From assembly GCF_003334385.1 (NCBI RefSeq), contig NZ_QOWN01000018.1: a stretch of DNA of 64,000 bases; one strand, written 5' to 3'. Every line of letters begins with the position of its first letter. Position 1 is the stretch's first letter. Below, in pieces: positions 1,405 through 31,441 of the stretch. Made by a program: the position numbers and the translations under genes. The notes beneath the pieces were generated by a model. It ran no database searches, was not told the origin of the DNA, and saw nothing but the letters and a program-made list of their open reading frames with translations. This stretch comes from Escherichia coli. Lineage in GTDB: Bacteria; Pseudomonadota; Gammaproteobacteria; Enterobacterales; Enterobacteriaceae.

Positions 1405-1535
1405 GGAAGTGATAGGAAGTGACCAGATAATACATATATGTTCTGTACTCTCTTGCGCATTTTGATTGTTGACTGAGTAACCAGACAGTTGATGTGCACG
1501 ATTTCCCCTCGCCCTAACAGACGTGGGCGGGGGCA

Positions 1536-2158
1536 CCCGGTGTGTGCAATATACGAAAAAAAAGCCCGTACTTTCGTACGAGCTCTTCTTTAAATATGGC
1601 GGTGAGGGGGGGATTGACTCGCTTCGCTCGCCCTGCGGGCAGCCCGCTCACTGCGTTCACGGTCTGTCCAACTGGCTGTCGCCAGTTGTCGACCCCCGGT
1701 CGGGGCTTCTCATCCCCCCGGTGTGTGCAATATACGAAAAAAAAGCCCGTACTTTCGTACGAGCTCTTCTTTAAATATGGCGGTGAGGGGGGGATTGACT
1801 CGCTTCGCTCGCCCTGCGGGCAGCCCGCTCACTGCGTTCACGGTCTGTCCAACTGGCTGTCGCCAGTTGTCGACCCCCGGTCGGGGCTTCTCATCCCCCC
1901 GGTGTGTGCAATATACGAAAAAAAAGCCCGTACTTTCGTACGAGCTCTTCTTTAAATATGGCGGTGAGGGGGGGATTGACTCGCTTCGCTCGCCCTGCGG
2001 GCAGCCCGCTCACTGCGTTCACGGTCTGTCCAACTGGCTGTCGCCAGTTGTCGACCCCCGGTCGGGGCTTCTCATCCCCCCGGTGTGTGCAATATACGAA
2101 AAAAAAGCCCGTACTTTCGTACGAGCTCTTCTTTAAATATGGCGGTGAGGGGGGGATT
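1536..2158. repeat. Perfect tandem repeat, 181-bp unit x about 3.4 copies, each containing a copy of the last 19 nt of tRNA-Ser plus the tRNA terminator hairpin
   Basis: Identical 181-bp units begin at 1536, 1717, 1898 and 2079; the last copy merges into the genuine serX 3' end; motif TGGCGGTGAGGGGGGGATT recurs at period 181. Confidence 0.9.
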
Positions 2159-2227
2159 CGAACCCCCGATACGTTGCCGTATACACACTTTCCAGGCGTG
2201 CTCCTTCAGCCACTCGGACACCTCACC
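2140..2227 (-). tRNA. serX: tRNA-Ser (anticodon GGA)
   Basis: Reverse complement is GGTGAGGTGTCCGAGTGGCTGAAGGAGCACGCCTGGAAAGTGTGTATACGGCAACGTATCGGGGGTTCGAATCCCCCCCTCACCGCCA, an 88-nt class II tRNA with long variable arm and encoded CCA. Confidence 0.92.
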
Positions 2228-2421
2228 AAATTGTCGTTCCTGTCTTGCTGGAACGGGCGCTAATTTAGGGAAATCATGACCTGAGGTCAACAAACTTTTT
2301 GAAAAAATCGCGCGTTTATTCAAACTTCAATCAATGTGTGGTTTTAATAAGCGAAATCTGCTTTTTTTGCCACCGACCACGGATTTGTTATGCTGGTGGC
2401 CTTTGTAGATCATAACGATAA

Positions 2422-4870: not shown

Positions 4871-5362
4871 ATGAACATACTTCTCTCTATTGCAATCACA
4901 ACAGGCATTCTCTCCGGTATCTGGGGATGGGTGGCTGTTTCCCTGGGCTTACTAAGCTGGGCGGGCTTCCTGGGCTGTACGGCCTACTTTGCCTGCCCGC
5001 AAGGTGGGCTGAAAGGGCTGGCGATCTCCGCTGCAACCCTGCTTAGTGGCGTGGTGTGGGCGATGGTCATTATTTACGGTAGTGCACTGGCACCACATCT
5101 GGAAATTCTCGGTTATGTCATAACCGGTATTGTCGCGTTTCTGATGTGTATTCAGGCCAAACAGCTGCTGCTTTCATTTGTTCCGGGGACGTTTATAGGC
5201 GCATGCGCGACGTTTTCCGGGCAGGGTGACTGGAAACTGGTGTTACCTTCGCTGGCGCTTGGGCTGATATTTGGTTACGCAATGAAAAACAGTGGCCTGT
5301 GGCTGGCGGCGCGTAGTGCAAAGACGGCGCACCGTGAGCAGGAAATCAAAAATAAAGCGTGA
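4871..5362 (+). CDS. ycdZ: inner membrane protein YcdZ
   Basis: Hydrophobic ORF; start trimmed to MNILLSIAITTG to give 163 aa. Confidence 0.8.
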   Translation: MNILLSIAITTGILSGIWGWVAVSLGLLSWAGFLGCTAYFACPQGGLKGLAISAATLLSGVVWAMVIIYGSALAPHLEILGYVITGIVAFLMCIQAKQLLLSFVPGTFIGACATFSGQGDWKLVLPSLALGLIFGYAMKNSGLWLAARSAKTAHREQEIKNKA

Positions 5363-19887: not shown

Positions 19888-20289
19888 TATTTGTTCCCTA
19901 AATACACCATGAGAACATACCTGTTAATAACAGGACAATATCAGGTGAATGATTATGCAATTCAACGGTGTTTTTCCAAGTATCTAAGCAGTTTTACACA
20001 GATTCTATGCAGTATCGGTATAGTCTCTTTTTAGCATAACTTATTGATATCTATAAAGAATCTGTGAAGTCTCTTTTCAGGGTAAACTGTATCGTGTTAG
20101 TCGTCCCTCTCTCGACTCCTAGAAAAGTGCTATATACAGGGCTATATAACGATATATAGATAGTTGGTCACATGGTGTAACTATCAAGAAACTTAACGAT
20201 TTCCTACGTGAAAGTTAGAAAGTGATGGTTATAGTTACCCTCCTAAAATCTTCATAGCTCCTTCATAACCAGTCTTAAAAGGACTTCCT

Positions 20290-20404
20290 TATGAGACACT
20301 TTCAACGTAACGGTAGAATGCACCTTCCAAGTGTCTCATAAGCTTGTTTTTGAATTATGAGACAGCTAAACTTATGAGACCAACTTTTGAGACTTCTTAG
20401 GGGG
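20290..20404. promoter_or_regulatory. res-like cluster of resolvase-type half-sites (TGTCTCATA, matching TGTCYNNTA) overlapping the promoter of the small serine recombinase gene
   Basis: TATGAGACA at 20290-20298 and inverted TGTCTCATA at 20332-20340; further direct copies at 20357-20365, 20373-20381 and partial at 20387-20394, ending just 5' of the RBS/ATG at 20409. Confidence 0.55.
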
Positions 20405-20408
20405 ATGT

Positions 20409-20957
20409 ATGGCGGTGATTGGTTATTGCAGGGTATCAACACAAGACCAGACTGTAGACAACCAGAAACTACAGATAGAGAAGGTTCACAAGGTCGATAA
20501 ATGGTTTATTGATGAGGCTGTCTCAGGAGCTACAAAGGCCACCAGCAGAGATGGTTTTAGAGACATGATGAACTATGTAAGGTGTGACGATACGTTAGTT
20601 GTGGTAGCTATTGACCGTTTAGGGCGTAATACCGTTGATGTGCTCTCTAACGTGGAGGCACTACAGACTAAAGGTGTGAGGGTTGTTTCTCTACGTGAAG
20701 GTTTCGACTTATTAACACCAATCGGTAGAGCAATGCTTACTATGATGGCTGGTTTAGCTGACCTTGAAAAAGACCTTATCAGTGAACGTAGAAAGGCTGG
20801 TATTGAACGTGCTAAAGCTGAAGGGGTTCACATGGGGAGACCTGTAAAAGCTTCTTCAGAGACTGTAAAGATGCTTATCTCACAAGGTAAAACGAGGTTG
20901 CAGATTCAGGAAGAGCTAGGAATCTCTAGAGCAACTTATTACAGACTTGCTAAATAA
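20409..20957 (+). CDS. small serine recombinase (resolvase/DNA-invertase family) with C-terminal HTH
   Basis: 182 aa; N-terminal catalytic motif VIGYCRVSTQDQ (active-site Ser), resolvase core, C-terminal HTH LGISRATYYRLAK; RBS GGGGGA upstream. Confidence 0.85.
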   Translation: MAVIGYCRVSTQDQTVDNQKLQIEKVHKVDKWFIDEAVSGATKATSRDGFRDMMNYVRCDDTLVVVAIDRLGRNTVDVLSNVEALQTKGVRVVSLREGFDLLTPIGRAMLTMMAGLADLEKDLISERRKAGIERAKAEGVHMGRPVKASSETVKMLISQGKTRLQIQEELGISRATYYRLAK

Positions 20958-21300
20958 GTTACTGAATAGTTACATGGATGTAGCTGATATTTGGCTTTTT
21001 TGCAAAGGGGGTCACATAGCTGGTGTGACGGGTACTTAGCAGGTATAGACCTGTGATAGATATTTTCGAAGATTCGGGGAAGATGAGATTCAAAGAGGGC
21101 TAGTCATTTTTTATAAAAATTTTCAGAATCTGAAAAGTTACTGTACAGAATATATACAGACATCTTTAAAGTATCTGTAAAGACTTTTAAGATAAAAGAT
21201 AGATATCCAGAAAGGATATCCGTTTAGAAAGACTGTTAAGTATCTCTTAAAAGAGAGTAAACCTTGTCAATAGTGATTGCAATAAAAATTTTTATTTCTT

Positions 21301-21963
21301 ATGTCAATTGAGCATATTTTAATCGGGAAGCATCATGGGGGTTCTGATTACTGGAGAACTCCATTTTTGTTATTTAAGAATCTAAACTGTGAATATATTT
21401 TCACGCTGGATGGTGCTGCAACTAAGCACGATACGTTATTACCCCGCTTTACGGATGATATTCACAATCAATCGTGGATTGGCGAAAGGGTGTTCTGTAA
21501 CCCGCCGTACAGCGATATTCCGTCGTTCCTCATAAAAGCGTCTGAGGCAGATTTAGCGGTATTCCTGATACCGTATAGAGCCAACACCAGCTACTGGCTT
21601 AGGCACATTTACAGCAATAACCACTGTCATGAAATCCGTATTCTTCATCGTGCAGTTAAATACCTTCCACCAGCAGGCCATAACGGGCTTACTATTCGTT
21701 CACCGTTTCCAAGTGCAGTCATTGTTTTTAAAAAAGAACCACGCAGGCATGAAATTACGCAGATGATTTGCTGTGCTGATACATTGCTACCGTTAACCAT
21801 CATTAACAGAGGAGGCTTAAGAGGAAGACCCACCATTTACCCACCTGAGACGCTCGACAGCTTCATAAAACTATACAGGCAAGGAAAACCCATTAAGTGC
21901 ATTGCAGATGCTCTCAGAATGCCTCTGAGCACGTCATACAGGATTGCGCAAAGGTTGAGCTAA
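21301..21963 (+). CDS. phage-type DNA N6-adenine methyltransferase (Dam/T1-like family) with C-terminal HTH-like extension; orphan (no cognate nuclease recognised)
   Basis: 220 aa; motifs DYWRTP, FTLDGAA and catalytic CNPPYS (NPPY), ...FPSAVIVF; extra C-terminal approx 70 aa with HTH-like segment. Confidence 0.75.
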   Translation: MSIEHILIGKHHGGSDYWRTPFLLFKNLNCEYIFTLDGAATKHDTLLPRFTDDIHNQSWIGERVFCNPPYSDIPSFLIKASEADLAVFLIPYRANTSYWLRHIYSNNHCHEIRILHRAVKYLPPAGHNGLTIRSPFPSAVIVFKKEPRRHEITQMICCADTLLPLTIINRGGLRGRPTIYPPETLDSFIKLYRQGKPIKCIADALRMPLSTSYRIAQRLS

Positions 21964-22325
21964 AATTCTCATAAATATGGTCATTTACAAGACAGGTGAT
22001 TCAGATATTAAGAAGTATCCCTGTGAACAATAAATGACCAATCAGTAATTATTCTGTGAAATAATTGTTGCAATTTATAATCACATCTGTTATAGTTTCT
22101 ATATGGGCTGATAAAAAAGTTCATGTCTTGAAGTGGTAACACTTGGGGAGGTGTCAGATGGTTGGCGTATAAAACCTCTCATTCATGGTATACCTCAGCG
22201 TTTTAATCATCGTACTGTTTCAGGCATGGACTTCTTTATCAGTCCATCAATCCCCCAGATATTTTAATCACACAGGCTAATCGGTTTTATCCGGTTGGCC
22301 TTTTCACATATGAGGTATTTTATGA

Positions 22326-23294
22326 ATGAAAAAAGAAACTAATGCTTTTATTATGGTAGATAAACGAGTTGCACAATTCCCTAAAACATTAAAGCCAATT
22401 GACCGCTTGGTATATTTCACTATGCTGGATGGTGCTGATTATTACGAATCTAAGTTCGGGAGATATGCACCAAGTATTGACTATTTGATGGTTATGTCTG
22501 GTGCTACACGTAATACAGTTATTGACTCTCTGAAAAGACTTGAGTCACACAGGCTTATTGAGAAGACCAATATCAAAGGGCAGCAAAGTATTTTTAAAGT
22601 ATTCACGTTAGATGAGCGTCCAGAAGTCTTATCAGAACCTACCCTTGATGAGCGTCGTAGAGTCAAATTATCAGGTCAACCAGAATCTGACACTAACCCA
22701 ACCAAAAATTGGTTACCTACCCAACCAGAATTTGGTTACCTACCTAACCAGAAATTGGTTACATGTAATACTGAATATAAAGACAAAAATATAAAAACTA
22801 AAGAAGAAAGACTAAAAGGGAACTTTGAAGAAGAATCTCTTAAGAAGGGAGCTTCGCTCTGTGATTCACATGAATGTGATATTAAAGAAGATGACTTTCT
22901 TTCTTTGGATGAATTAAATGATTTTCTCTCTATGAATGAATCTGACCTTGATAGTGAAGCTACTAAAGAGGTCGTTAAAAAGGAAGATAAAATCTCTGAT
23001 GTGATTGCTAGTAGTGACCATAAAAACACACAGTGCCCCGCCACTGATGATGAGATGGACCCCTTCGATGATGATGAAGAGGATGAAGAGTCAGAACGTG
23101 AAAAAGCCATTAAGAGGGTAGAGAAGAAAAAGAGATTCGAGCTTGCAAGACAAAAGAACAAAGTATCGGGTTTAGACCCATTCGATGACAGTGAAGATGA
23201 TTATTATCTTTCACCGAGAAAGAAACAAACCCAGGATGACAAGAAGCAAAAAATTAAACCGAAGATGTATTTTGCTGGTGGAGGTATGCGCTAA
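22326..23294 (+). CDS. putative replication initiator (winged-helix N-terminal domain, acidic C-terminal tail) with origin-like iterons embedded in its coding sequence
   Basis: 322 aa; N-terminal winged-helix-like region; internal DNA iterons plus AT-rich tract resembling the lambda O/ori arrangement; C-terminus very rich in D/E. Confidence 0.55.
   Translation: MKKETNAFIMVDKRVAQFPKTLKPIDRLVYFTMLDGADYYESKFGRYAPSIDYLMVMSGATRNTVIDSLKRLESHRLIEKTNIKGQQSIFKVFTLDERPEVLSEPTLDERRRVKLSGQPESDTNPTKNWLPTQPEFGYLPNQKLVTCNTEYKDKNIKTKEERLKGNFEEESLKKGASLCDSHECDIKEDDFLSLDELNDFLSMNESDLDSEATKEVVKKEDKISDVIASSDHKNTQCPATDDEMDPFDDDEEDEESEREKAIKRVEKKKRFELARQKNKVSGLDPFDDSEDDYYLSPRKKQTQDDKKQKIKPKMYFAGGGMR
22676..22820. 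repeat. Origin-like iteron array (3-4 direct repeats of about 23 bp, each containing the palindrome AACCARAAWTTGGTT) followed by an AT-rich tract
   Basis: AACCCAACCAAAAATTGGTTACCTAC / CCAACCAGAATTTGGTTACCTAC / CTAACCAGAAATTGGTTACATG at 22695-22765, partial unit at 22677-22693, then AT-rich 22766-22820. Confidence 0.65.
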
Positions 23295-23584
23295 TGAGAG
23301 AATATAACGGTGAAAAACGATACAAAGATTATCTATTAAGGCGCTACAGCATTTCTCGTGAAGGTCATCTTCTGAAAGATACTCATGGGGAGGTTTACCG
23401 GATTCGACCGAAGAAGGAAGGAAAGAATTATTTCTTTTTTGATGGTGTGACAGATTTAAAGATTGACGCTTTGAGGTTTGCAGTGCTGTATCATTATGAT
23501 ATCTGGGATTCGGTCCACCAGCTACGATTAAAAGACGGTGACCCCGGTAATCTGAGGGCCACCAATATCATCACAAAACGTTAG
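23294..23584 (+). CDS. small protein, possibly degenerate HNH/NUMOD-like; function unknown
   Basis: 96 aa; start overlaps stop of upstream gene (TAATG); C-terminal segment LRLKDGDPGNLRATN loosely resembles HNH_3-type motifs. Confidence 0.4.
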   Translation: MREYNGEKRYKDYLLRRYSISREGHLLKDTHGEVYRIRPKKEGKNYFFFDGVTDLKIDALRFAVLYHYDIWDSVHQLRLKDGDPGNLRATNIITKR

Positions 23585-23903
23585 TTTGTTTTACCATCAT
23601 CAATCGTAATTGTGATTTCATATTTGAAAAGCTTAATGCTGAAATTGAATCGTGTACTTTTGGCGATAATCATTTTTAAAAGCTGATACACCAGAAGCAC
23701 CAGAAACACAAAGCAACCTAAGCTTGCGAATCTGTGAGATTCAGCAATTGTTTCAAGAAAGCCCATTAATTCCCCTTATTTATCAAAGGGAATGACCTGT
23801 ATCAGCCCCTATAACCATAATATCATGTAAATGAGATGTTGACAATATGTTAAATAAATGTTAAGATTGTAGTATGAGTAAGAGATTTAAGGAGATTTTT
23901 ACA

Positions 23904-24194
23904 ATGACTCACACAGTTACGCGCCTTTTGCCAGAGGCATTTGAACGACTGGCAGCAATCAAAGCCAAATACCCTGATATGAAGCACACGGCGCTTGTTG
24001 GAGAGCTTTTAAAAGAGTCGGTAGCCCTGACCCCTTTCGATAACGTTAAGGGCGTTGCAGAGGGTTCTAAGGCCATCAGAATCACAACAGGCCAACTGGA
24101 ACTACTCAAAGCGCAGTCCGCAGTAGCAGGTTGCTCAATGATTCAGGTGTTAAGCACTAAGGTTCATCAACTGGCGGATAAATTGGAGGTTTAA
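23904..24194 (+). CDS. hypothetical protein, possible ribbon-helix-helix DNA-binding regulator
   Basis: ORF track 23874..24194; the internal ATG at 23904 is preceded by RBS AAGGAG; predicted beta-strand/helix pattern (TVTRLLPEAFERLAAIKAK). Confidence 0.45.
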   Translation: MTHTVTRLLPEAFERLAAIKAKYPDMKHTALVGELLKESVALTPFDNVKGVAEGSKAIRITTGQLELLKAQSAVAGCSMIQVLSTKVHQLADKLEV

Positions 24195-24580
24195 TGTATG
24201 ACTTTTATAAACATCGTGACCATTTGGTAAGATTTGACGGTAGAGTCTGGAAAGACATAACAGAAACCAATAAACCCAAGTTTACCCACCAGCAATTAGC
24301 CTCAAGATTTGATATCTGGACTGAAGCACAAAAAGATAATGGTGATTTCGAGTTTATCAGGGGTTTTGATTATGCTTACGAAGATGACCTTAAAGACGCC
24401 ATTAAATTAATTGAAAATTTTAATGGAAATAATTCTGGTGACAAACACAAAGCCAATGGTAATCGGTATGACAGGGAGTTAATTCTTGATGCCATTTCCA
24501 GAGGTCAATCACAAAGTTATATTTCTGAGAAATACGGCTTATCACGTAGTCAATACTACAAGATTAAAGCGTCTGTGTAA
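24194..24580 (+). CDS. hypothetical protein with C-terminal HTH (regulator or terminase-small-subunit-like)
   Basis: 128 aa; start coupled to upstream stop (TTAATG) with RBS GGAGG; C-terminal HTH ISEKYGLSRSQYYKIKA. Confidence 0.5.
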   Translation: MYDFYKHRDHLVRFDGRVWKDITETNKPKFTHQQLASRFDIWTEAQKDNGDFEFIRGFDYAYEDDLKDAIKLIENFNGNNSGDKHKANGNRYDRELILDAISRGQSQSYISEKYGLSRSQYYKIKASV

Positions 24581-24717
24581 GCCTGTGAGAATGAGTGAGA
24601 CTCAAAGATGAGCTACCCTATTACTAAGGTGTCTCACTCCCTCTGTAACCCGCATGGTTACTGGCCTCAGAATGGCTATTTTGGCAGATTTAAGATGTGT
24701 TTTAGAGGAATTTAAAA

Positions 24718-25041
24718 ATGAACAACTTCCCATTACAAATTTTCGTTGATAACGACACCGCTCTGATGATTCAGGCTTTCACTGATTCCGGTGTATCAAT
24801 TGACTTTGACAGGCTGTTAGAGTTGATGGCTGATAATGCAGAAAACATCTCTGACTTTATTCAGTCGGTGGAGTTTAACGAGCCTCGAATGATGCTACCA
24901 ATTAAAGACAGCAACATGAAAAGATTGGTTATCGAGCAAACGAACAAATACAGCGTTAGCCCTGAAAGATATCTCAAGGCAGCTATAGCAATTTTGTGCG
25001 CTGACAATATTTTGGTGACGGATTCGAAGGTGGTGCATTAA
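24718..25041 (+). CDS. hypothetical protein
   Basis: 107-aa ORF with RBS AGAGGA; no recognisable motif. Confidence 0.45.
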   Translation: MNNFPLQIFVDNDTALMIQAFTDSGVSIDFDRLLELMADNAENISDFIQSVEFNEPRMMLPIKDSNMKRLVIEQTNKYSVSPERYLKAAIAILCADNILVTDSKVVH

Positions 25042-25118
25042 TGGGCTTAATAATTGCTTGGACAGCTTTGGGTTTATTTGTTGGTTGCTGGGTAGGTAAC
25101 ACAGTAAATAAGAATTGA
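25041..25118 (+). CDS. candidate small hydrophobic peptide (25 aa, single predicted TM helix), translationally coupled to upstream ORF
   Basis: ATG overlaps upstream TAA (TAATGG); encodes MGLIIAWTALGLFVGCWVGNTVNKN; below the size cut-off of the ORF track. Confidence 0.3.
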   Translation: MGLIIAWTALGLFVGCWVGNTVNKN

Positions 25119-25535
25119 TGTTGCCAATCTGTTAAAAAGCTGTTGACAAATAACCTTAAGCATGACATAATTTTAATTATGGGAGAGTAATTCTCTCTTA
25201 TATTTCTTTCAATAATCCGATGGATGGATGGATATTCTGAGTTGGTGAGGTATGTTCTATACCGAACATTCTGAAAGGTGCAATGCTTTTCGCTACATGA
25301 CCTCTTATATAACCTGAGAGGTCATCTCGAAAAGTACTCTTGTTCATTCGTTATTGAATCCTTTAGATGTTTTAATTTCTTCACCTTATGAATAGCCCTT
25401 TATAAGAAATTATCTAGGGCTATTCAGTTTTTAAAAAGCATACTTGGCAAACCGCCTTTTAAGTCTCTTCTAAGTTCGTAGGCTGTCAGGTGTGCTTTTT
25501 AAAAACTGAATATACTTAGAAGAGGAAATGAAATA

Positions 25536-26246
25536 ATGGCAAATGACATTTATATTAGTGGAAGAAAAATTGATAGCTTCGGTGACTGGTCGCCACAGAC
25601 TGAACATCCAGCTATCGTTATTCAGCGTAAAGAACACGATGCGAGAATTGAGCTTGAGCAAGAGCTAAAGATGTCACCAAAGCAAATTACCTTTGTGTCT
25701 CCTGAGCCTCAAGAGATGCCTGATGTATGCAAGAGTGAAGCATTGCTTGAGCTTGAAAAGAAATATTTCCCAGCTTTAAAAGCACAGCGTCTTAGATTAG
25801 ATGACGCTTACAGCAAAGTTACCCTGATGCAATCAGCTATTGAACCGTCAGAATTTGAGATTCAGGATGAATTGTCACAGAAACCATTTGTTTATTACCA
25901 ATATGCAGACAATGATGGTTTTGGTACTTTTCCTGAGAATATCCCAGACGCGATTAGTAGTCTTCCTGATGGATATCGAATTGTGAAGATGGTTAAAGCT
26001 TCAAGGGGTGCTGGTCAATTTATTTATATGACCAATAAGAGCGATGAAGAACTCGCTGAACTTGCTAGACAGAACATCTTGGCATCACGTAACAAGCAGC
26101 TTGATAGTGCTAAGTTGTATCTCTCAAGAGAGCTTCAGGCTATGAAAGAGCTTGTTAGTGAATATGAGTCGCAGAAGAAGATTGCTATGCAAGCTGATAT
26201 TGAGCAGTTAGTGAAGATTTCTCAGAAGTATAGTAAAGCACTTTAA
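25536..26246 (+). CDS. hypothetical protein with C-terminal coiled-coil
   Basis: 236-aa ORF with RBS GAGGAAA; no recognisable catalytic motif. Confidence 0.5.
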   Translation: MANDIYISGRKIDSFGDWSPQTEHPAIVIQRKEHDARIELEQELKMSPKQITFVSPEPQEMPDVCKSEALLELEKKYFPALKAQRLRLDDAYSKVTLMQSAIEPSEFEIQDELSQKPFVYYQYADNDGFGTFPENIPDAISSLPDGYRIVKMVKASRGAGQFIYMTNKSDEELAELARQNILASRNKQLDSAKLYLSRELQAMKELVSEYESQKKIAMQADIEQLVKISQKYSKAL

Positions 26247-26270
26247 TTATGAATTAAGAAGAGGTGATTA

Positions 26271-26480
26271 ATGTTTGAAGAACGTTTAGAGACTATTCGG
26301 TCTGTTTGTGAAAACTTAAAGTTACAAACCAAGCCAGCCTTAAGAATTAAAACCAAACATCAAATTATCACCTCACACAAACCAAAAACACGCAAGATTC
26401 CAAAGTGGTGTATTGACCGTATTCCTTCTGATGCTCAAATCATAGGTGAAACGGAATTACATTATCTTGTCCGACATTAA
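26271..26480 (+). CDS. hypothetical small basic protein
   Basis: 69-aa ORF with RBS GAGGTG. Confidence 0.4.
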   Translation: MFEERLETIRSVCENLKLQTKPALRIKTKHQIITSHKPKTRKIPKWCIDRIPSDAQIIGETELHYLVRH

Positions 26481-26577
26481 AAATTGGTTGGGTAAAATCA
26501 ACGGGAGAGATTATCGAGTGACATCGGTAGTTTCTCCTTTTTTTGTATATGAACACTTAAGAGGTGAAAAAATATGA

Positions 26578-28749
26578 ATGGCACAGTTTAAAGTTGATGA
26601 TTTTCTGATTGAGCTAGGTTTTAACTCTCAGAGGGTTTTAAAAGGTCTGGAAAAAGCCGAGAAACAAACGATGCAGGTAGCATCACGAATTGAGAAGCGA
26701 TTGAATAAAGCTTTTAAAGTTAACCCTACGCCTTTAAATGATTCTCTCAAGGTCATGGAAAGAAATGTCGATAAAACTGTTTCCAAGATTGAGCAGCGTC
26801 TTAAAAACACTAAAGCGTTTAAGATTAAAACGGAAATTGAGGATACTTTAAAGCCACTTAAACAACCGAGACAGCCACGAATTAGCGGCAACAGAGCAAT
26901 CACAGCAGCACATAGTGTGAATATGTCTAAGCTTGGTGATATTAATCCGCTGATGGCTAAAATGTTTAAAGCACAGTATTACAGCTTAAGCGGTAAGGCT
27001 GGTAATATTGGAAGTGAAAAGTTTAACGCTGAACTTGCAAAATTAAATCAATCTCTTCGTGAAACGTTGAATAAACTCAGGTCACAGACAAAGACCGCCA
27101 GCATCAGCAAAGTAAATGATTCCTTTAATAATCTTGCAAGCAATGCAATTAAGTTATCTGGTGCATTTTACTCTGTGATGGGTGCTCTTAACGCTTACAA
27201 GGCCATTATGAATGCAGGTCTTAAACGAGATTCCGCACAGAGAGCCGCTAAGTTTGTACTTGGTGATAAAGCATCTGAAGCTGAAACATTTATCAGGGGA
27301 CTGGCTGACAAGACAGGTCTTAATATCTCTGAAGGACTATCAAGCTACGCTAAGTTTGCAGCAGGTGCTCAGGGTTCTATGTCACAGGAACAGACACAGG
27401 AGCTATTTGGTAATGCAACGGCTATGAGCCGTTTAATGGGGCTTTCTAACGATGAACTAAACGGCATTTTGAAAGCTTTTGAGCAGATGGCTTCTAAGGG
27501 CAAGATTCAGGCTGAAGAATTACGTGGGCAGTTAGGTGACCGTATGGCTGGTGCATTTAAGCTATTCGCTGAAGCATTGGGTATGACTGCTACAGAGCTT
27601 GATGCAGCCATGAAAAACGGGAAGGTACTTTCCGCTGATACTCTCCCTAAAGTCGCTAAACAGATGGGCTTGATGATTGATAAAGCGGGTGGCTGGGCTG
27701 AAGTCGCTAAGAGCACCCAGACAGCTTTAGGTAAGTTAGCAAACAACTGGGATGATACGATGGTTAAAATCTTCTCAGGTTCACAGGATGAGTTAAACGG
27801 CTTCTTATCCAGCCTGGGTAGCCTGCTTAGTGAAATGGGGATGAGTTCTTCTATCGCTGGTGATGCTATCGGTGGACTTATCGACATGCTTAAAGCTGGT
27901 GTAGATGATATTCGCGTATTCAATAACACCATTGAAGGCTGGATTTTACAGGTTAAAAAGTTCTATTACAGCCTTGATGACACTAAACGAAAACTACTTG
28001 ATGAAGTCGGTGATGGTTTTATCAATTTTGTCAAAGGTCTTGCTATAGCGTTATCTGCAAAGACGCTATTCAGTGCCACTACAGGGGTGATGAACCTGAC
28101 AAGAGCAATCACAACGTTAGGTACAAGAGCTAATCAGGTGGCTGGTCAGGTAACTACTGGTAAAGGTGGTGGAAAACTGAAAGGTGTAGCTGGTGGTGTA
28201 GGTAGTGCTCTTGCAATTGGTTATGCTGATGACGGTTATGAAACAGCGTTAGCATTAGCTTCAATGATTCCACAAATCAGAGGTGTCACCCTTGGTTTAT
28301 ATGCATTGAAGAAAGCACTGGATTTTATGAATCAGGAAGTAGTCAAAAACGCTAATATGCATCCATCTGGGGTAGGTGTGGGTAGTGACTTTAATCCTGT
28401 GTATTCTGGTGACCCTAATAAACCGAATATGATTAACGAAGGATGGAGTAAAATTTTTAATTCAATGGGTGAATTGTTTAACAATGCCACAATGAATATT
28501 GCAAGATTCAATCATCCAGAATTAAACAACATTAAGCAAGATTCAGCATTAACGAGTGCAGATATTCAGAGTCTGAGGGATGAAATTAGTGCTTTGAGTA
28601 AACGTATTCAGGAGCCTGTGAAAGTTTCACTTGGTGGTGAAGTTGCCATTAAACCAGATGAAACCAGCTTTATGACCTTTAGCAGTAATATCTACGACCA
28701 ATATGCAGAAGCTACGCTATTAAGTTCATCATTCCCAGAAGATGATTGA
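26578..28749 (+). CDS. phage tail tape-measure-like protein
   Basis: 723 aa; coiled-coil N-terminal part; segment AEELRGQLGDRMAGAFKLFAEALGMTATELDAAMKNGKVLSADTLPKVAKQM resembles the conserved tape-measure N-terminal domain; Gly-rich middle. Confidence 0.65.
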   Translation: MAQFKVDDFLIELGFNSQRVLKGLEKAEKQTMQVASRIEKRLNKAFKVNPTPLNDSLKVMERNVDKTVSKIEQRLKNTKAFKIKTEIEDTLKPLKQPRQPRISGNRAITAAHSVNMSKLGDINPLMAKMFKAQYYSLSGKAGNIGSEKFNAELAKLNQSLRETLNKLRSQTKTASISKVNDSFNNLASNAIKLSGAFYSVMGALNAYKAIMNAGLKRDSAQRAAKFVLGDKASEAETFIRGLADKTGLNISEGLSSYAKFAAGAQGSMSQEQTQELFGNATAMSRLMGLSNDELNGILKAFEQMASKGKIQAEELRGQLGDRMAGAFKLFAEALGMTATELDAAMKNGKVLSADTLPKVAKQMGLMIDKAGGWAEVAKSTQTALGKLANNWDDTMVKIFSGSQDELNGFLSSLGSLLSEMGMSSSIAGDAIGGLIDMLKAGVDDIRVFNNTIEGWILQVKKFYYSLDDTKRKLLDEVGDGFINFVKGLAIALSAKTLFSATTGVMNLTRAITTLGTRANQVAGQVTTGKGGGKLKGVAGGVGSALAIGYADDGYETALALASMIPQIRGVTLGLYALKKALDFMNQEVVKNANMHPSGVGVGSDFNPVYSGDPNKPNMINEGWSKIFNSMGELFNNATMNIARFNHPELNNIKQDSALTSADIQSLRDEISALSKRIQEPVKVSLGGEVAIKPDETSFMTFSSNIYDQYAEATLLSSSFPEDD

Positions 28750-28905
28750 TTTAACGGTGTTCTACGTGAATAAAGCAAAGTTAATACCCGCACTAAAAAT
28801 TATTTTTTACGTAGCACACGCTTAACAGAGAAAATACTTATATATCAAAGGCTTGGTTAAAAATGATTAAAATACACTAAGCCTTTGAAATCAAAGGAGA
28901 ATTTA

Positions 28906-29694
28906 ATGATTTACTCTAATCAACTTCGTTACAGTGGCAAAGATGGTGTTTACTTCCATCTACAAGGCCAACCAGATAATTTCTTGTCACTATCAGCAAC
29001 AGAGAACATGGAATTTGACAGCCCTATGATGGTGACCACTCAAAATATGCAATCAGGGCAGACTGTAACAGATAATGTAATGCGTTCACCCAGAACTATT
29101 TCAATCAGTGGTGTGGTTGTAGTTGGTGAATCCGGTAGTATCCTCATCTCAAGAGATAATAAGCTGGTGGAAAACTTCATCGACACTCTTGAAAGCTGGC
29201 GTGACCAGAAGCAAATTATTTCGGTCATCTGTAAAGACGGAATTAAAATTGATGATTCTATTATTACGAGTTTTAAAGCCTCTAAAGATGTTGGTATTTC
29301 AAATGGTCTAAGAGTCCAGCTAACTTTTCAGGAAATTAACTTTAAAGCAATTGTAGGGCAAACTGATGTTTCAGCAGCTACTGGCAAAGCTGCCACCACG
29401 AATGACGGTGGTGTGACCAGTAAGAAGAATGCAGGTAACGTGACCACTGAACGCAATAACGCGCCTATGCTATCGTGCAAAGAGTTAATGAATATTAGCG
29501 ATGTATCCGGTTACGTTCCGGCTATCAGAAATGATATTCTCGATGCTCAGATTAAGTGCAATAAAGCTTGGAAGCTGGACTATTCAGACTTAACAGAAGC
29601 TGAAAAAACCAACGTCACCAATGCTAATAGTAACGCTGGTCGAGTAGCTTCAAAGCTTAAAAAGTACTCAGTGAATCCTAATAAGAGATACTAA
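28906..29694 (+). CDS. hypothetical protein downstream of tape-measure gene (possible tail-associated protein)
   Basis: ORF track 28885..29694; ATG at 28906 preceded by RBS AAAGGAGA; gene order after the tape-measure gene. Confidence 0.45.
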
Positions 29695-31220
29695 ATCTCT
29701 ACTACATCAACATCTATTAAACCCCTCTCAGTGACTTCAGAAAGCGACTGTATAGCCTCTGTAACGTTGTCTGAGGGGTTTTCTGTTATAGGTAGGTCAA
29801 TTACCTTGCCGTTGTGAAAAGTCACTTTACAGCGACGTTTAGCGGCATCTATAACTATTTCTTTGAGTACGCCCTTGATAAGTAGCTGTGTCTCTATCAT
29901 CCCTTCCTTTGTTGTCCTGTCAATATCTTTGAGGCTTCCAGTTGTGATGGCCTTTATCCGCTGTGTTTCCTCTTCGATATCATGATTGAGTTTTGATAGC
30001 GCATTCTTCATATCACGTAATTTCTCTGTGATAATTGTCATGTCATCGAGTTCAATAGCGAGTTCTGCCATTTTTGAGATTTTACGCTGCAAATCTTCAC
30101 GCTGTAATTTAAGGCTATCAATAGTGTCAGTATTTTCAGTTTCAAAACGGTCGCATAATGCGAGCATGTAGAGAATAGTTGCATCCGTTTGCTTACGACT
30201 GATAGCCTTTGCACTACACCTGTTAGCTGAACGATTAGGGCATCTGTACATCCCAAAACGTTTTAAGGCATATCCACCAAGAACAATAGTAGCCCCACAC
30301 TCAGAACATTTGATGATACCCCTGAACAAGTTGACTGATAGCGGATTACTTGATACAGAAGCCCTACCATATTGCCCTGTGTTCAGTTGCTGTACTCGAT
30401 AGAATAGTGACTCACTGATTATTGCGGGGTAGTAACCCTGAACTTCTTCACGTCCAGCAGGTGTGAAACATCCAATCACAGCACGATTTCTGAGTAGTTT
30501 CTTTACAGCAGTATCAGACCACCCCTTTTGTTTGGGTGTGTATTGATTCAATGACAAGTGGCCTTCATCGTTTAAAGTTCTGGTGATAGCCCAAAAGCTT
30601 AAACCCTGTAATCTCAGGTCAAATGCTCGTTTAACAACTTCCACTTTATCGGGGATGATAGTGAATGTTCGACGGTCATCATTCAGCCTTAACCATGCAG
30701 GACAACGCCTAGATACCTTGATACCTTCGGAGATGAGTTCTTTTTTACGGTTCCATGCAGCTTGGACACGCTCAGACTTCCTCAGACTTTCCTCATGCGC
30801 CCGCTGCATTATCAGAATGCTTTTAATCAGGGATAACGGGTCTTTTAAACTTTCTCGTGTGTAATGTTCACCATCGGACAGGGTGACTACATCTACACCA
30901 GCCCTTAAGATACGGCGTAATAGCTCAGAAGCAATATCAATATCCTGACGTGACAGACGGTCTAAACTCTCGATTAGTAGCGTATCACCAGCTTTAACAA
31001 GCCCTTTCTCGATAGCGGTTAGAAAGTCACCTAGACCACCTTTCAGGTGCTTACCACTAAAAGCACTTTTCCCCAAATCTTTAAAGCTCAAGGATGAATC
31101 CAAGTAAAACTCAGGGTTCTTATCAAGCCAGTCAGTAACCAGCTTAGATTGTCTGCGTACAGAGTCCCCTTTTAGTTGTCGTTCACTTGAAAATCTGATG
31201 TAGCTGATTGCCCGTCTCAT
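29691..31220 (-). CDS. large serine recombinase (serine integrase)
   Basis: About 510 aa; N-terminal resolvase-type catalytic domain ([12 protein letters not shown], active-site Ser), recombinase domain, zinc-ribbon-like Cys cluster (CSECGATIV...CPNRSANRC), C-terminal coiled-coil; first ATG at 31220, track start at 31226 is TTG. Confidence 0.88.
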
Positions 31221-31243
31221 ATTCAATACCTAAAATGATGTGT

Positions 31244-31441
31244 TTAGGAACCCATTATACTGAAGACAATACCGGACCACATATTCAGGGCGGAGTGACC
31301 GGTAACGCCAAGCTGCTCAACGTAGAGGGGTAAGAAGGGCATTACCAGACTGAAGGCGGCACCGGTAAGAAAACAGCCTAGCCAGGCGACGATCAGGTTT
31401 CGTTTCCAGTTTATAGGGGTGTCATTTTCACAGGGTGACAT
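31244..31441 (-). pseudogene. mdtG: mdtG 5' fragment (N-terminal 58 codons of MdtG fused to 7 element-derived codons before a stop)
   Basis: Starts [16 protein letters not shown]... as MdtG; sequence diverges at the junction near 31260. Confidence 0.85.

Follow-up and report, generated by a model that had tools for sequence, protein, structure and literature searches.

The tRNA-Ser(GGA) gene serX lies within a 64,000-nt stretch of Escherichia coli DNA (contig NZ_QOWN01000018.1; hereafter the window), and its 3' side adjoins a tandem repeat. Tandem Repeats Finder reported positions 1536-2158 as a single array with a period of 181, 3.4 copies, 100% matches and no indels. By exact string comparison, the units that start at 1536, 1717 and 1898 are mutually identical, and the fourth copy, a partial one of 80 nt (2079-2158), is identical to them as well. 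The perfect 181-bp array of about 3.4 copies joining serX, which the original prediction had read from the letters, therefore survived the exact alignment in which any difference between units would have spoken against it. The self-match at lag 181 stops at 1536 and reaches no base further leftward. At the other end, the array overlaps serX by precisely the 3'-terminal 19 nt of the tRNA (2140-2158, AATCCCCCCCTCACCGCCA). Counted from the tRNA, the units stand head to tail behind serX on the minus strand, with the first base directly after the CCA (Table 1). A perfect 181-bp array of this kind cannot have arisen by chance.

Table 1. Features of the serX locus, in window positions
Feature	Position	Strand	Basis or details
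serX, tRNA-Ser(GGA)	2140..2227	-	ARAGORN; Rfam tRNA 53.8 bits; MG1655 annotation b1032
Promoter-like site upstream of serX, TTGACC-17-TAAATT	2262..2290	-	consensus scan only
Full TLR unit 1 (proximal, rsX1)	1959..2139	-	Rfam RtT 37.3 bits; fold -80 kcal/mol, z = -5.6
Parts of unit 1	trailer and terminator 2095-2139 (hairpin 2099-2134); RtT-like domain 1959-2095; 19-nt copy 1959-1977	-	
Full TLR unit 2 (rsX2), identical to unit 1	1778..1958	-	Rfam RtT 37.3 bits; hairpin 1918-1953; 19-nt copy 1778-1796
Full TLR unit 3 (rsX3), identical to unit 1	1597..1777	-	Rfam RtT 37.3 bits; hairpin 1737-1772; 19-nt copy 1597-1615
Distal partial unit	1499..1596	-	sequence
Short ORF, MRSPDRGSTTGDSQLDRP (then stop)	2019..2075; repeats 1838-1894, 1657-1713	-	start is the conserved ATGAGAA of the RtT core

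Each module consists, in order, of the serX 3' trailer, a strong terminator, a structured domain of ~137 nt and a copy of the tRNA 3' end. This copy matches serX at 19 of 19 positions in all three full units and contains the AAT of the T-loop, the 3' strands of the T-stem and of the acceptor stem, a G and CCA. The terminator is a 16-bp hairpin with a GAAA loop followed by U8 (-20.4 kcal/mol, z = -5.7). A unit built from the tRNA's terminal 19 nt and a terminator hairpin had been predicted and was found; the accompanying claim that the rest has no relation to the tRNA body did not hold. The T-stem 5' strand recurs in the unit together with the first part of the T-loop (GGGG[G/T]TCGA), and two further segments are complementary to the T-stem. 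At the distal end, positions 1536-1596 reproduce without a change the trailer, the terminator (its hairpin at 1556-1591) and 20 nt from the start of the domain. The adjoining 1499-1535 (GGGCGAG...AAATCG) looks like the degenerate, internally deleted leftover of a further unit, and this distal partial unit is probably the fourth element counted as rsX4.

The array is very probably the catalogued repeat rsX1-4

[quoted passage not shown] The catalogue of Rudd (1999), as relayed in PMC8144298, counts 22 TLRs at 10 K-12 loci, with the members rsX1-4, rsW', rtT/rtV1-3, the lys/val, arg, proK and lysV elements, and rrA/rrB/rrF. The serX units lie directly 3' of a tRNA gene, in the same orientation, and share 19 of 19 nt with its 3' end. 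They also coincide with a K-12 catalogue entry: the supplement of PMC8144298 (Stenum et al. 2021) gives a deletion as 'rsX1-4: 1096182-1096779', and adding 777 for the shift between genome versions places it at 1534-2131 of the window. With high confidence, we take the array to be the TLR array rsX1-4, comprising three full copies and one truncated copy of the RtT family behind serX.

The Rfam model RtT (RF00391) matched every window unit (E = 1.3e-4), with a score short of its gathering threshold of 45 bits. MG1655 alleles pass at 46.3 bits, and the window units differ from them by one base, G instead of T at unit position 85; the sub-threshold score is an allele effect at an unpaired position. 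Because the window units fall under the threshold, annotation of the locus hinges on a single-base allele. In the RF00391 architecture, a 5' purine run and a 3' strand derived from the tRNA form the closing helix; inside it lie a T-stem-like hairpin and further internal hairpins, and the ...CCA tail is left free. The cmscan alignment of the units spans model positions 1-130, and the minimum free energy (MFE) fold of a single unit agrees. RefSeq annotates the serX array as "RtT sRNA". The likeness to the repeats distal to tyrT, noted in the original prediction, can now be called homology on the strength of the RtT matches, the RefSeq annotation and an alignment with the tyrT units. Among other K-12 TLRs, the lys/val elements (47-60 bits) and the proK element (101 bits) pass the RtT threshold and the arg elements (23-31 bits) fall below it. 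Rfam matches to sX4, Thr_leader and Plastid-psbl-rps4 were discarded as noise, being far below their thresholds and overlapping the tRNA or the terminator.

The serX array is already known: it has been catalogued since 1999, named, annotated automatically in RefSeq and deleted experimentally. The original prediction had noted neither its place as a named TLR family member, rsX1-4, nor the three differences that make the MG1655 units non-identical.

Helices of the module show compensatory changes

A pattern scan returned 182 units at 120 loci, and all units with a tRNA in reach lay downstream of tRNA-Tyr, tRNA-Ser(GGA) or tRNA-Ser(GCT). We rejected a link to class II tRNAs alone as an artefact of the pattern, given that proK and lys TLRs pass the RtT model and arg TLRs match it more weakly. 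The unit was found behind tRNA-Ser(GGA) across genera of the Enterobacteriaceae. Behind tRNA-Ser it is a single module at 21 of 35 loci, in many genera, and the module also occurs behind five other tRNA types.

When 48 Ser-type units were aligned, 97.4% of cells were standard pairs. Compensatory changes affected 12 of 31 pairs, a count reached by none of 500 shuffles, with slid controls well below it. These changes fall in three helices, and the fold that RNAalifold gave for the 48 units is the RF00391 architecture. Helices 1-3 are invariant among Ser-type units, and their support comes from the comparison between tRNA types only. In the predicted closing helix, the first 7-8 nt of the 19-nt copy would form base pairs with a run of G at the domain's 5' edge, leaving the ...CUCACCGCCA tail single-stranded. 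Covariation does not discriminate between this closing-helix fold and an alternative split-T-arm pairing. [quoted passage not shown]

The tRNA-matched closing helices across the family, together with the compensatory changes and the cross-genus conservation of the module, argue for structural selection on at least one copy at each locus. A further-reaching proposal, which we consider improbable, is that the RtT/TLR module is a selected mimic of the tRNA 3' end and the serX array a dosage-variable set of such mimics with a real role. It would account for a closing helix re-tuned to the T-stem and acceptor 3' strand of the preceding tRNA, with internal pairing kept across genera; if true, the mimics might, for example, titrate or guide enzymes of tRNA 3' processing or CCA repair, or act as a decoy for factors that target tRNA 3' ends.

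The short ORF of each full unit (Table 1) raises another possibility, that every unit is a gene for a small tpr-like peptide. It opens with the conserved ATGAGAA from which tpr of the tyrT unit also starts, and this ATG hardly varies. However, frame and length diverge past ~11 codons among the 48 homologous units because of 1-nt indels in hairpin loops, so that products can be as short as 17 aa or longer than 38 aa and end in unrelated C-terminal sequences. The conserved N-terminus overlaps the invariant RNA core, and the ATG directly abuts the G-run, without a spaced ribosome-binding site. We rejected the protein-coding reading because the frame is not conserved, and regard a peptide gene as barely credible, in line with the original view of the ORF as tpr-like in position and probably not significant.

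Transcription of the array would depend on read-through past serX

Terminator-like matches are present on both strands, and the unit terminator is strong and probably bidirectional. A consensus scan found no promoter-like site on the minus strand inside the array, and the site upstream of serX (Table 1) is the only candidate promoter for the tRNA gene and for read-through into the array. Because a terminator of -20 kcal/mol with U8 stands before every module, transcription of units 2 and 3 should be very low. We propose that the modules would be transcribed solely by terminator read-through past serX, and that the enzymes of tRNA 3' processing would then act on their pseudo-tRNA 3' ends, RNase E cleaving in the trailer and exonucleases trimming thereafter. 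By analogy with rttR at tyrT, whose span begins 7 nt past the tyrV CCA and ends at the first unit's CCA, this processing may release RtT-like RNAs. For the TLRs of rrn operons, it has been proposed that RNase E recognises the repeated 3' end (PMC8144298).

Unit number varies and perfect identity points to recent homogenisation

Copy number at serX, compared across E. coli genomes, is polymorphic: 0, 1, 2, 3, 4 and 6 full units occur between conserved flanks, and the array is thus a variable-number tandem repeat. Our survey of 5,426 complete E. coli genomes yielded summary numbers, in which adjacent repeat matches are joined, and the unit-level look covered a sample of 60 genomes; in the survey, the unit body was present in 3,362 genomes, typically at 2 places (median) and at no more than 11, and 38% had no full unit. 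K-12 does not have the single copy that would have counted against a genuine array, as the MG1655 reference carries 3.4 copies (3 full units, with three differences between units). DH10B and a resequenced MG1655 have 4 units, versus 3 in the reference, a discrepancy that could partly reflect differences in assembly. Since unit number varies even among K-12 stocks, the array might serve as a typing marker, and it is a pitfall when variants are called against a reference.

Could the perfect identity or the copy number in the window be an artefact of assembly or polishing in the source genome? Tandem repeats are easily collapsed in assembly or evened out by consensus polishing, K-12 assemblies are split between 3 and 4 units, and over the first 5 kb the window differs from MG1655 at three positions, all inside the array. 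However, PSS-08-1 (Ecuador) and APEC-O117H42, two independent complete genomes, match the array and its flanks exactly over 1,001 bp, and a perfect 2.4-copy version occurs in five more genomes. The G85 variant recurs in other genera, the window is from a strain other than MG1655, with differences elsewhere and an insertion of 11.4 kb, and single long reads span an array of 623 bp. We therefore give an artefact next to no credence.

Units of one array resemble each other more than they do units of different species (median identity of 97% within an array versus 84% between loci). With the range of 0-6 full units and the differences among K-12 stocks, this bears out the earlier suggestion of recent amplification or homogenisation. 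The perfect identity of the units fits recent unequal recombination or slippage rather than integrase action. In the mechanism we propose, the ancestral state would be one module behind the tRNA, and the array would arise and be homogenised through unequal homologous recombination or replication slippage. Initially, the exchange would involve the tRNA 3' end and the 19-nt copy of the module; later exchanges would involve entire 181-bp units, and on this view the perfect identity in this strain would mark a recent expansion or conversion event.

It is also conceivable, though we think it unlikely, that the array is neutral or selfish DNA, its extra copies inert and drifting by recombination and serving at most as a bidirectional terminator stack between the convergent genes serX and ycdU; a single module may once have had an RNA role. 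The extreme copy-number polymorphism, the strong terminator before each module and the terminator-like matches on both strands are all in keeping with such drift. Because 38% of genomes have no full unit and a strain devoid of all 22 TLRs has been constructed (PMC8144298), the RNA is dispensable and the array may be selectively neutral. As regards the extra copies, neutrality is compatible with our main explanation, an array of TLR units expanded by recombination; however, it sits poorly with the compensatory changes and cross-genus conservation of the module, by which at least one copy would be structurally selected. Nor is a terminator stack needed, since strains without any full unit (L128), which keep just the distal stub, still retain one terminator.

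Comparison with known systems

The closest relatives of the serX array are the 178-bp repeats distal to tyrT/tyrV, the source of rtT RNA (rttR, RF00391; Egan & Landy 1978; Bosl & Kersten 1991, both as cited in PMC8144298). Both loci have tandem units of ~180 bp right behind a tRNA (3.1 copies at tyrT versus 3.4 at serX), and each unit ends in a 17-19-nt copy of its own tRNA's 3' end, including CCA. They share a core (GGATGAGAAG..CGAC..GGTTCGA ... CCCG.AGGGCGA..GCG.AGCG..AATCC), the closing helix and a short ORF (tpr) from the same ATG. The tyrT units score ~135 bits on the RtT model, against 37-46 bits for serX units, and the middle hairpins differ. Each serX unit begins with an intrinsic terminator, which tyrT units lack, and the T-stem-derived segments are GGGGG/CCCCC at serX and GAAGG/CCTTC at tyrT. 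The serX units of the window are identical to one another, whereas the tyrT units show 95% identity.

Within the K-12 TLR family (Rudd 1999), the array corresponds to the rsX1-4 entry by coordinates, with no difference in kind; the catalogued MG1655 allele has three differences, whereas the window allele has three identical full units. The 5S rRNA TLRs rrA/rrB/rrF likewise carry a 3' end that repeats that of the upstream stable RNA (PMC8144298). They bind Hfq and CsrA through GGA motifs; the 19 tRNA-linked TLRs, rsX among them, had a CsrA-binding predictor score of <0.01 (PMC8144298).

Attachment-site (att) duplications left by islands and prophages at serX and serW also place a direct repeat of the tRNA 3' end downstream of an intact gene. 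They invite the reading, raised in the original prediction, that the units are fossils of repeated integrase integration and excision at the serX 3' end, with the 19-nt copies as leftover att cores. serX is truly an integration site: several genomes have tyrosine-recombinase islands between the array and serX, and IMG/VR proviruses end at a tRNA-Ser 3' fragment that adjoins such arrays. The 19-nt copy begins in the T-loop, which is reportedly a known crossover sublocation of tRNA-targeting integrases. The details nevertheless make this origin very improbable, and the fossil interpretation was dropped. Genuine junctions carry a direct repeat of 14 nt (CCCCCTCACCGCCA) in E. coli and of ~28 nt in proviruses, not 19 nt, and are flanked by island DNA with an integrase gene or by phage DNA, without an RtT-like body. 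The units are conserved chromosomal sequence free of mobile genes, unlike an att-site scar or a miniature integrative element, and no IMG/VR phage contig contained the module away from a host flank. Separately, we considered TLR 19-mers as secondary attachment sites and rejected them, as the sole candidate boundary (H45) is an IS3-associated rearrangement. Between the repeats of an att duplication lie kilobases of mobile DNA; between TLR copies lie the 162 nt of a conserved structured module, often single and found behind several tRNA types. Insertions at serX displace the array intact, leaving it on the chromosomal side of the real junction.

A perfect tandem array ends inside the serX tRNA gene

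The 181-bp units downstream of serX form one tandem array at 1536-2158, for which Tandem Repeats Finder gave a period of 181, 3.4 copies, 100% matches and 0 indels. Direct string comparison found no difference among the three full copies, or between them and the 80-nt fourth copy, with the 181-nt periodicity bounded exactly at 1536 on the left and 2158 on the right. Because the array runs to 2158, within the tRNA gene, precisely 19 nt at the tRNA 3' end (AATCCCCCCCTCACCGCCA) are common to both. Each unit starts as the serX trailer, followed by a 16-bp hairpin with a GAAA loop and then U8; this terminator hairpin folds at -20.4 kcal/mol (z = -5.7 vs shuffles). Repeat finding, string comparison and hairpin folding thus agree with the original prediction of a perfect 181-bp array running into serX, with the tRNA 3' end and a terminator in every unit, and on exact alignment all units in the window are identical.

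Features of the serX array, differences from MG1655 and genes of the mdtG insertion (window positions)
Feature	Position	Strand	Remark
serX, tRNA-Ser(GGA)	2140-2227	minus	ARAGORN and Rfam tRNA model
Full unit 1, 181 nt	2139-1959		in direction of serX transcription
Full unit 2, 181 nt	1958-1778		in direction of serX transcription
Full unit 3, 181 nt	1777-1597		in direction of serX transcription
Partial unit, 61 nt	1596-1536		distal to unit 3
Unique sequence	from 1535 side to ycdU stop codon at 1404		ycdU convergent with serX
Short ORF	2075-2019, and repeats	minus	starts at invariant ATGAGAA
Difference from NC_000913.3	1733		T vs C
Difference from NC_000913.3	1874		C vs A
Difference from NC_000913.3	2055		C vs A
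Small DNA invertase	20409-20957		mdtG insertion
DNA methyltransferase	21301-21963		mdtG insertion
Replication-initiator-like protein	22326-23294		mdtG insertion
Tail tape-measure protein	26578-28749		mdtG insertion
phrog_3721 protein	28885-29694		mdtG insertion
Large serine recombinase, 511 aa	29691-31226	minus	right end of mdtG insertion

The array is rsX1-4, a member of the tRNA-linked repeats

According to PMC8144298, tRNA-linked repeats (TLRs) were first observed at tyrT by Egan and Landy (1978), and Rudd (1999) catalogued 22 of them, spread over ten K-12 loci. They are defined by 18-19 bp at the element's 3' end that equal the last bases of the tRNA or rRNA upstream of it. A strain table in that paper lists a deletion, 'rsX1-4: 1096182-1096779' (PMC8144298). 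Genome versions are offset by 777 bp (serX lay at 1096788 formerly and lies at 1097565 now), and adding 777 places the deletion at window 1534-2131, the serX array. The array is therefore a feature already named and already deleted experimentally, and belongs to a known, annotated repeat family.

The Rfam model of the RtT RNA family (RF00391), built on tyrT-distal repeats, aligns each window unit end to end at 37.3 bits (E = 1.3e-4), below its gathering score of 45 bits. MG1655 alleles carrying T at position 85 of the unit (T85) reach 46.3 bits, above it. Because they pass, the serX locus has two or three 'RtT sRNA' genes in the RefSeq annotation of K-12-type genomes, and none in that of genomes with the window allele.

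We aligned the serX unit with tyrV-distal units, the copy in the tyrT-tyrV spacer and one Pseudoalteromonas unit. Three blocks are common: the core GG(A/G)TGAGAA-N-C..CGAC...GG(T/G)TCGA, then CCCG-AGGG-GA...GCG-AGCG, and the terminal (A)ATCC...CCA. Together with the Rfam alignment of each unit, the blocks common with tyrV-distal units bear out the suggested likeness to the tyrT-distal repeats. The unit had been described as otherwise unrelated to the tRNA body, but it holds GGGG(G/T)TCGA, the T-stem 5' strand and T-loop start, and two T-stem-complementary segments, the 5' G-run and the CCCC after ATGAGAAG.

The RtT model also matches the MG1655 proK TLR (101 bits), the four spacer TLRs of the MG1655 lysT-valT locus (54-60 bits) and the TLR after lysQ (47 bits); the arg TLRs of the MG1655 argV-argQ locus score 23-31 bits, under threshold. 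[quoted passage not shown] From these matches and fitting strands, the TLRs appear to form a single homologous RNA family, adjusted in each case to the host tRNA.

Perfect identity is found in unrelated genomes

By gene order (IS3, ymdE, ycdU, serX, ghrA, then csg, opg and flg genes and rne) and sequence, the window corresponds to MG1655 coordinates 1095426 onward. Its first 5 kb differ from NC_000913.3 at only three bases, every one within the array. A single K-12 copy would have pointed to an artefact; MG1655 instead has 3.4 copies, as in the window, but its units are non-identical, with T at position 85 in the two tRNA-proximal units and G at position 45 in the distal one, versus G85 and A45 in all three window units. 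An artefact of one assembly as the source of the perfect array is ruled out by two unrelated complete genomes, PSS-08-1 and APEC-O117H42, in which 1,001 bp spanning array and flanks match at 100%, and by a perfect 2.4-copy version in five other genomes.

Further differences from MG1655 lie at 5216 (T vs G, ycdZ) and 7717 (G vs A, csgD), and an 11.4-kb insertion interrupts mdtG (19888-31256; 7 bp common at the junction), so the window comes from a K-12-like strain, not the reference. The insertion resembles a small element of phage origin that a serine integrase has inserted. It had no close match in 5,426 complete E. coli genomes, the best reaching 85% query coverage at 89.8% identity.

Unit number varies from zero to six

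Copy number across E. coli, a comparison proposed with the original prediction, was followed with a 101-nt query from the unit body (window 1616-1716), present only in full units. The query was found in 3,362 of the 5,426 complete genomes and was absent from 2,064; carriers had a median of 2 places per genome (maximum 11). Between the same serX flanks we observed 0 full units (NWU_3, and a B2-type strain keeping a degenerate stub), 1 (23CRST009), 2 (TUM9803), 3 (MG1655, PSS-08-1 and the window), 4 (DH10B, 20AR0354 and resequenced MG1655, GCF_056500995.1) and 6 (23CRST038), with odd unit lengths of 174, 182 or 188 nt now and then. At serW, the trailer and terminator stand alone in K-12, and strain E686 has full units. 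The MG1655 clpA-serW interval also contains an Rfam CRISPR-DR4 match (454-481 of the fetched locus; 50 bits vs a threshold of 35), probably the remnant of a CRISPR array; two occurrences of the motif CTGTACGGCAGTGAAC lie downstream of serW in MG1655.

The extra unit of DH10B and resequenced MG1655 is another copy of the proximal T85 type, as expected from one unequal exchange between the two proximal units, though some of these may be assembly differences. The difference between three and four units within the K-12 lineage reflects an unequal exchange that took place very recently in laboratory stocks, or else the collapse of one unit in some assemblies.

Across species, Ser-type units had a median identity of 97% within arrays but 84% when first units of separate loci were compared; for Tyr-type units the values were 98% and 87%. 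Identical pairs within an array numbered 5 of 18 for Ser and 6 of 25 for Tyr. Among the matches listed, a single unit was the commonest state (21 of 35 Ser loci). Given the spread in copy number and the likeness within arrays, both of which fit the proposed recent amplification or gene conversion, the perfect identity in the window reads as the ordinary outcome of recent duplication or conversion in a recombining tandem array.

The module is a conserved structured element

A core-pattern scan of one genome per species gave at least 120 loci and at least 182 units. Among the matches listed, every unit whose fetched DNA included a tRNA was found 58-71 nt downstream of that tRNA, or at this distance plus multiples of ~175-183 nt, and the linked tRNAs were tRNA-Tyr(GTA) (79 units), tRNA-Ser(GGA) (79) and tRNA-Ser(GCT) (8, in Pseudoalteromonas). 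Confinement to Tyr and Ser tRNAs is a property of the scan pattern, as the proK and lys/val TLRs match the RtT model. Six Pseudoalteromonas loci among these matches, outside Enterobacterales, carry RtT-like modules behind tRNA-Ser(GCT), mostly without the terminal tRNA 3' copy.

We aligned 48 distinct Ser(GGA)-type units from Escherichia, Citrobacter, Enterobacter, Salmonella, Kosakonia, Pluralibacter, Trabulsiella, Superficieibacter and other genera (mean column identity 80%). RNAalifold predicted a closing helix between the 5' G-run and the tRNA-derived C-run, an inner T-stem-like hairpin, an 8-bp hairpin, a 6-pair composite hairpin, a GCCC/GGGC hairpin and a free tail ...CUCACCGCC(A). The 31 predicted pairs were standard in 97.4% of cells, with changes on both sides in 12. 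The covariation score was 0.154 vs 0.069 in shuffles (0/500 reached 0.154), and 0.02-0.04 when partners were slid by 1-3 columns. Compensatory changes fell mostly in helices 4-6; helices 1-3 had no variation inside the Ser set and differed only between tRNA types. A single window unit folds the same way (-80 kcal/mol, z = -5.6). These results make the module a conserved structured element rather than filler separating att cores.

The short ORF in each unit starts at exactly the same position as tpr, the short ORF of the tyrT unit. Across the 48 units its product keeps MR(S/T)PDRGST, then diverges in frame and length (17 aa to read-through past 38 aa) because loop indels shift the frame. The conserved N-terminus is the RNA core read as codons; the unit as a protein gene is unsupported, in line with the earlier view of a tpr-like ORF of doubtful significance.

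Integrases use serX, and the array stays on the host side

The array had also been read as a fossil of repeated integrase action. serX is a genuine integration site: in 02E060 island DNA directly follows the intact tRNA. Where such islands end, the junction reads ...GGCGGT|CCCCCTCACCGCCA and a tyrosine recombinase gene faces it; next come the old serX trailer and terminator, with any TLR units of the strain (none in O157:H7 NE1127, two in TUM9803). The att repeat at these islands, however, is 14 nt rather than 19, with kilobases of mobile DNA between its copies, whereas the TLR array is shifted as a block of chromosomal DNA. A boundary in H45 at the TLR 19-mer was rejected as an integration site, being an IS3-associated rearrangement.

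A scan of viral contigs (IMG/VR) gave 14 loci: 11 provirus ends, 2 chance matches in coding sequence and 1 E. coli tyrT region. In the 11 proviruses (~31-46 kb), phage DNA abuts a ~28-nt tRNA-Ser 3' fragment (T-arm to CCA), beyond which lie the host trailer and 1-4 TLR units, the host side of the attachment site. These provirus-adjacent arrays have a period of ~166 bp and two terminator-hairpin variants with compensating stem changes among units. Neither the island-bearing serX loci nor the 14 viral-contig loci linked a recombinase to unit genesis. With islands using a 14-nt repeat, proviruses a ~28-nt one and the array on the host side, the integrase origin did not stand; the earlier interpretation was otherwise largely right.

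Proposed expression of the serX modules

Extra serX units are probably neutral, because 38% of E. coli genomes have no full unit. An early stringent-response claim for rtT, the RNA of the tyrT/tyrV-distal repeats, was withdrawn; CsrA binding is not predicted for the tRNA-linked TLRs, and a strain has been constructed without any of the 22 TLRs (PMC8144298). What remains of value is the question of TLR function and the way in which closing helices throughout the family fit their host tRNAs; in practice, the repeat changes fast, and a single base decides whether it is annotated.

Onto the anatomy, family membership, structural conservation and array instability that we observed, we place a model for transcription, processing and array dynamics. 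The only promoter-like site lies upstream of serX. RNA polymerase would mostly be halted by the first terminator, with a fraction entering unit 1 and progressively less reaching units 2 and 3, and unequal recombination or slippage would make the array expand and contract. In each module the closing helix would hold the pseudo-tRNA 3' end and leave its ...GCCA tail free, a form that tRNA 3'-maturation enzymes may recognise. Such processing would yield a discrete RNA by analogy with rttR at tyrT, which begins 7 nt beyond the tRNA and ends at the CCA of the unit; comparable processing has been proposed for rrA/rrB/rrF, the TLRs after 5S rRNA genes (PMC8144298).
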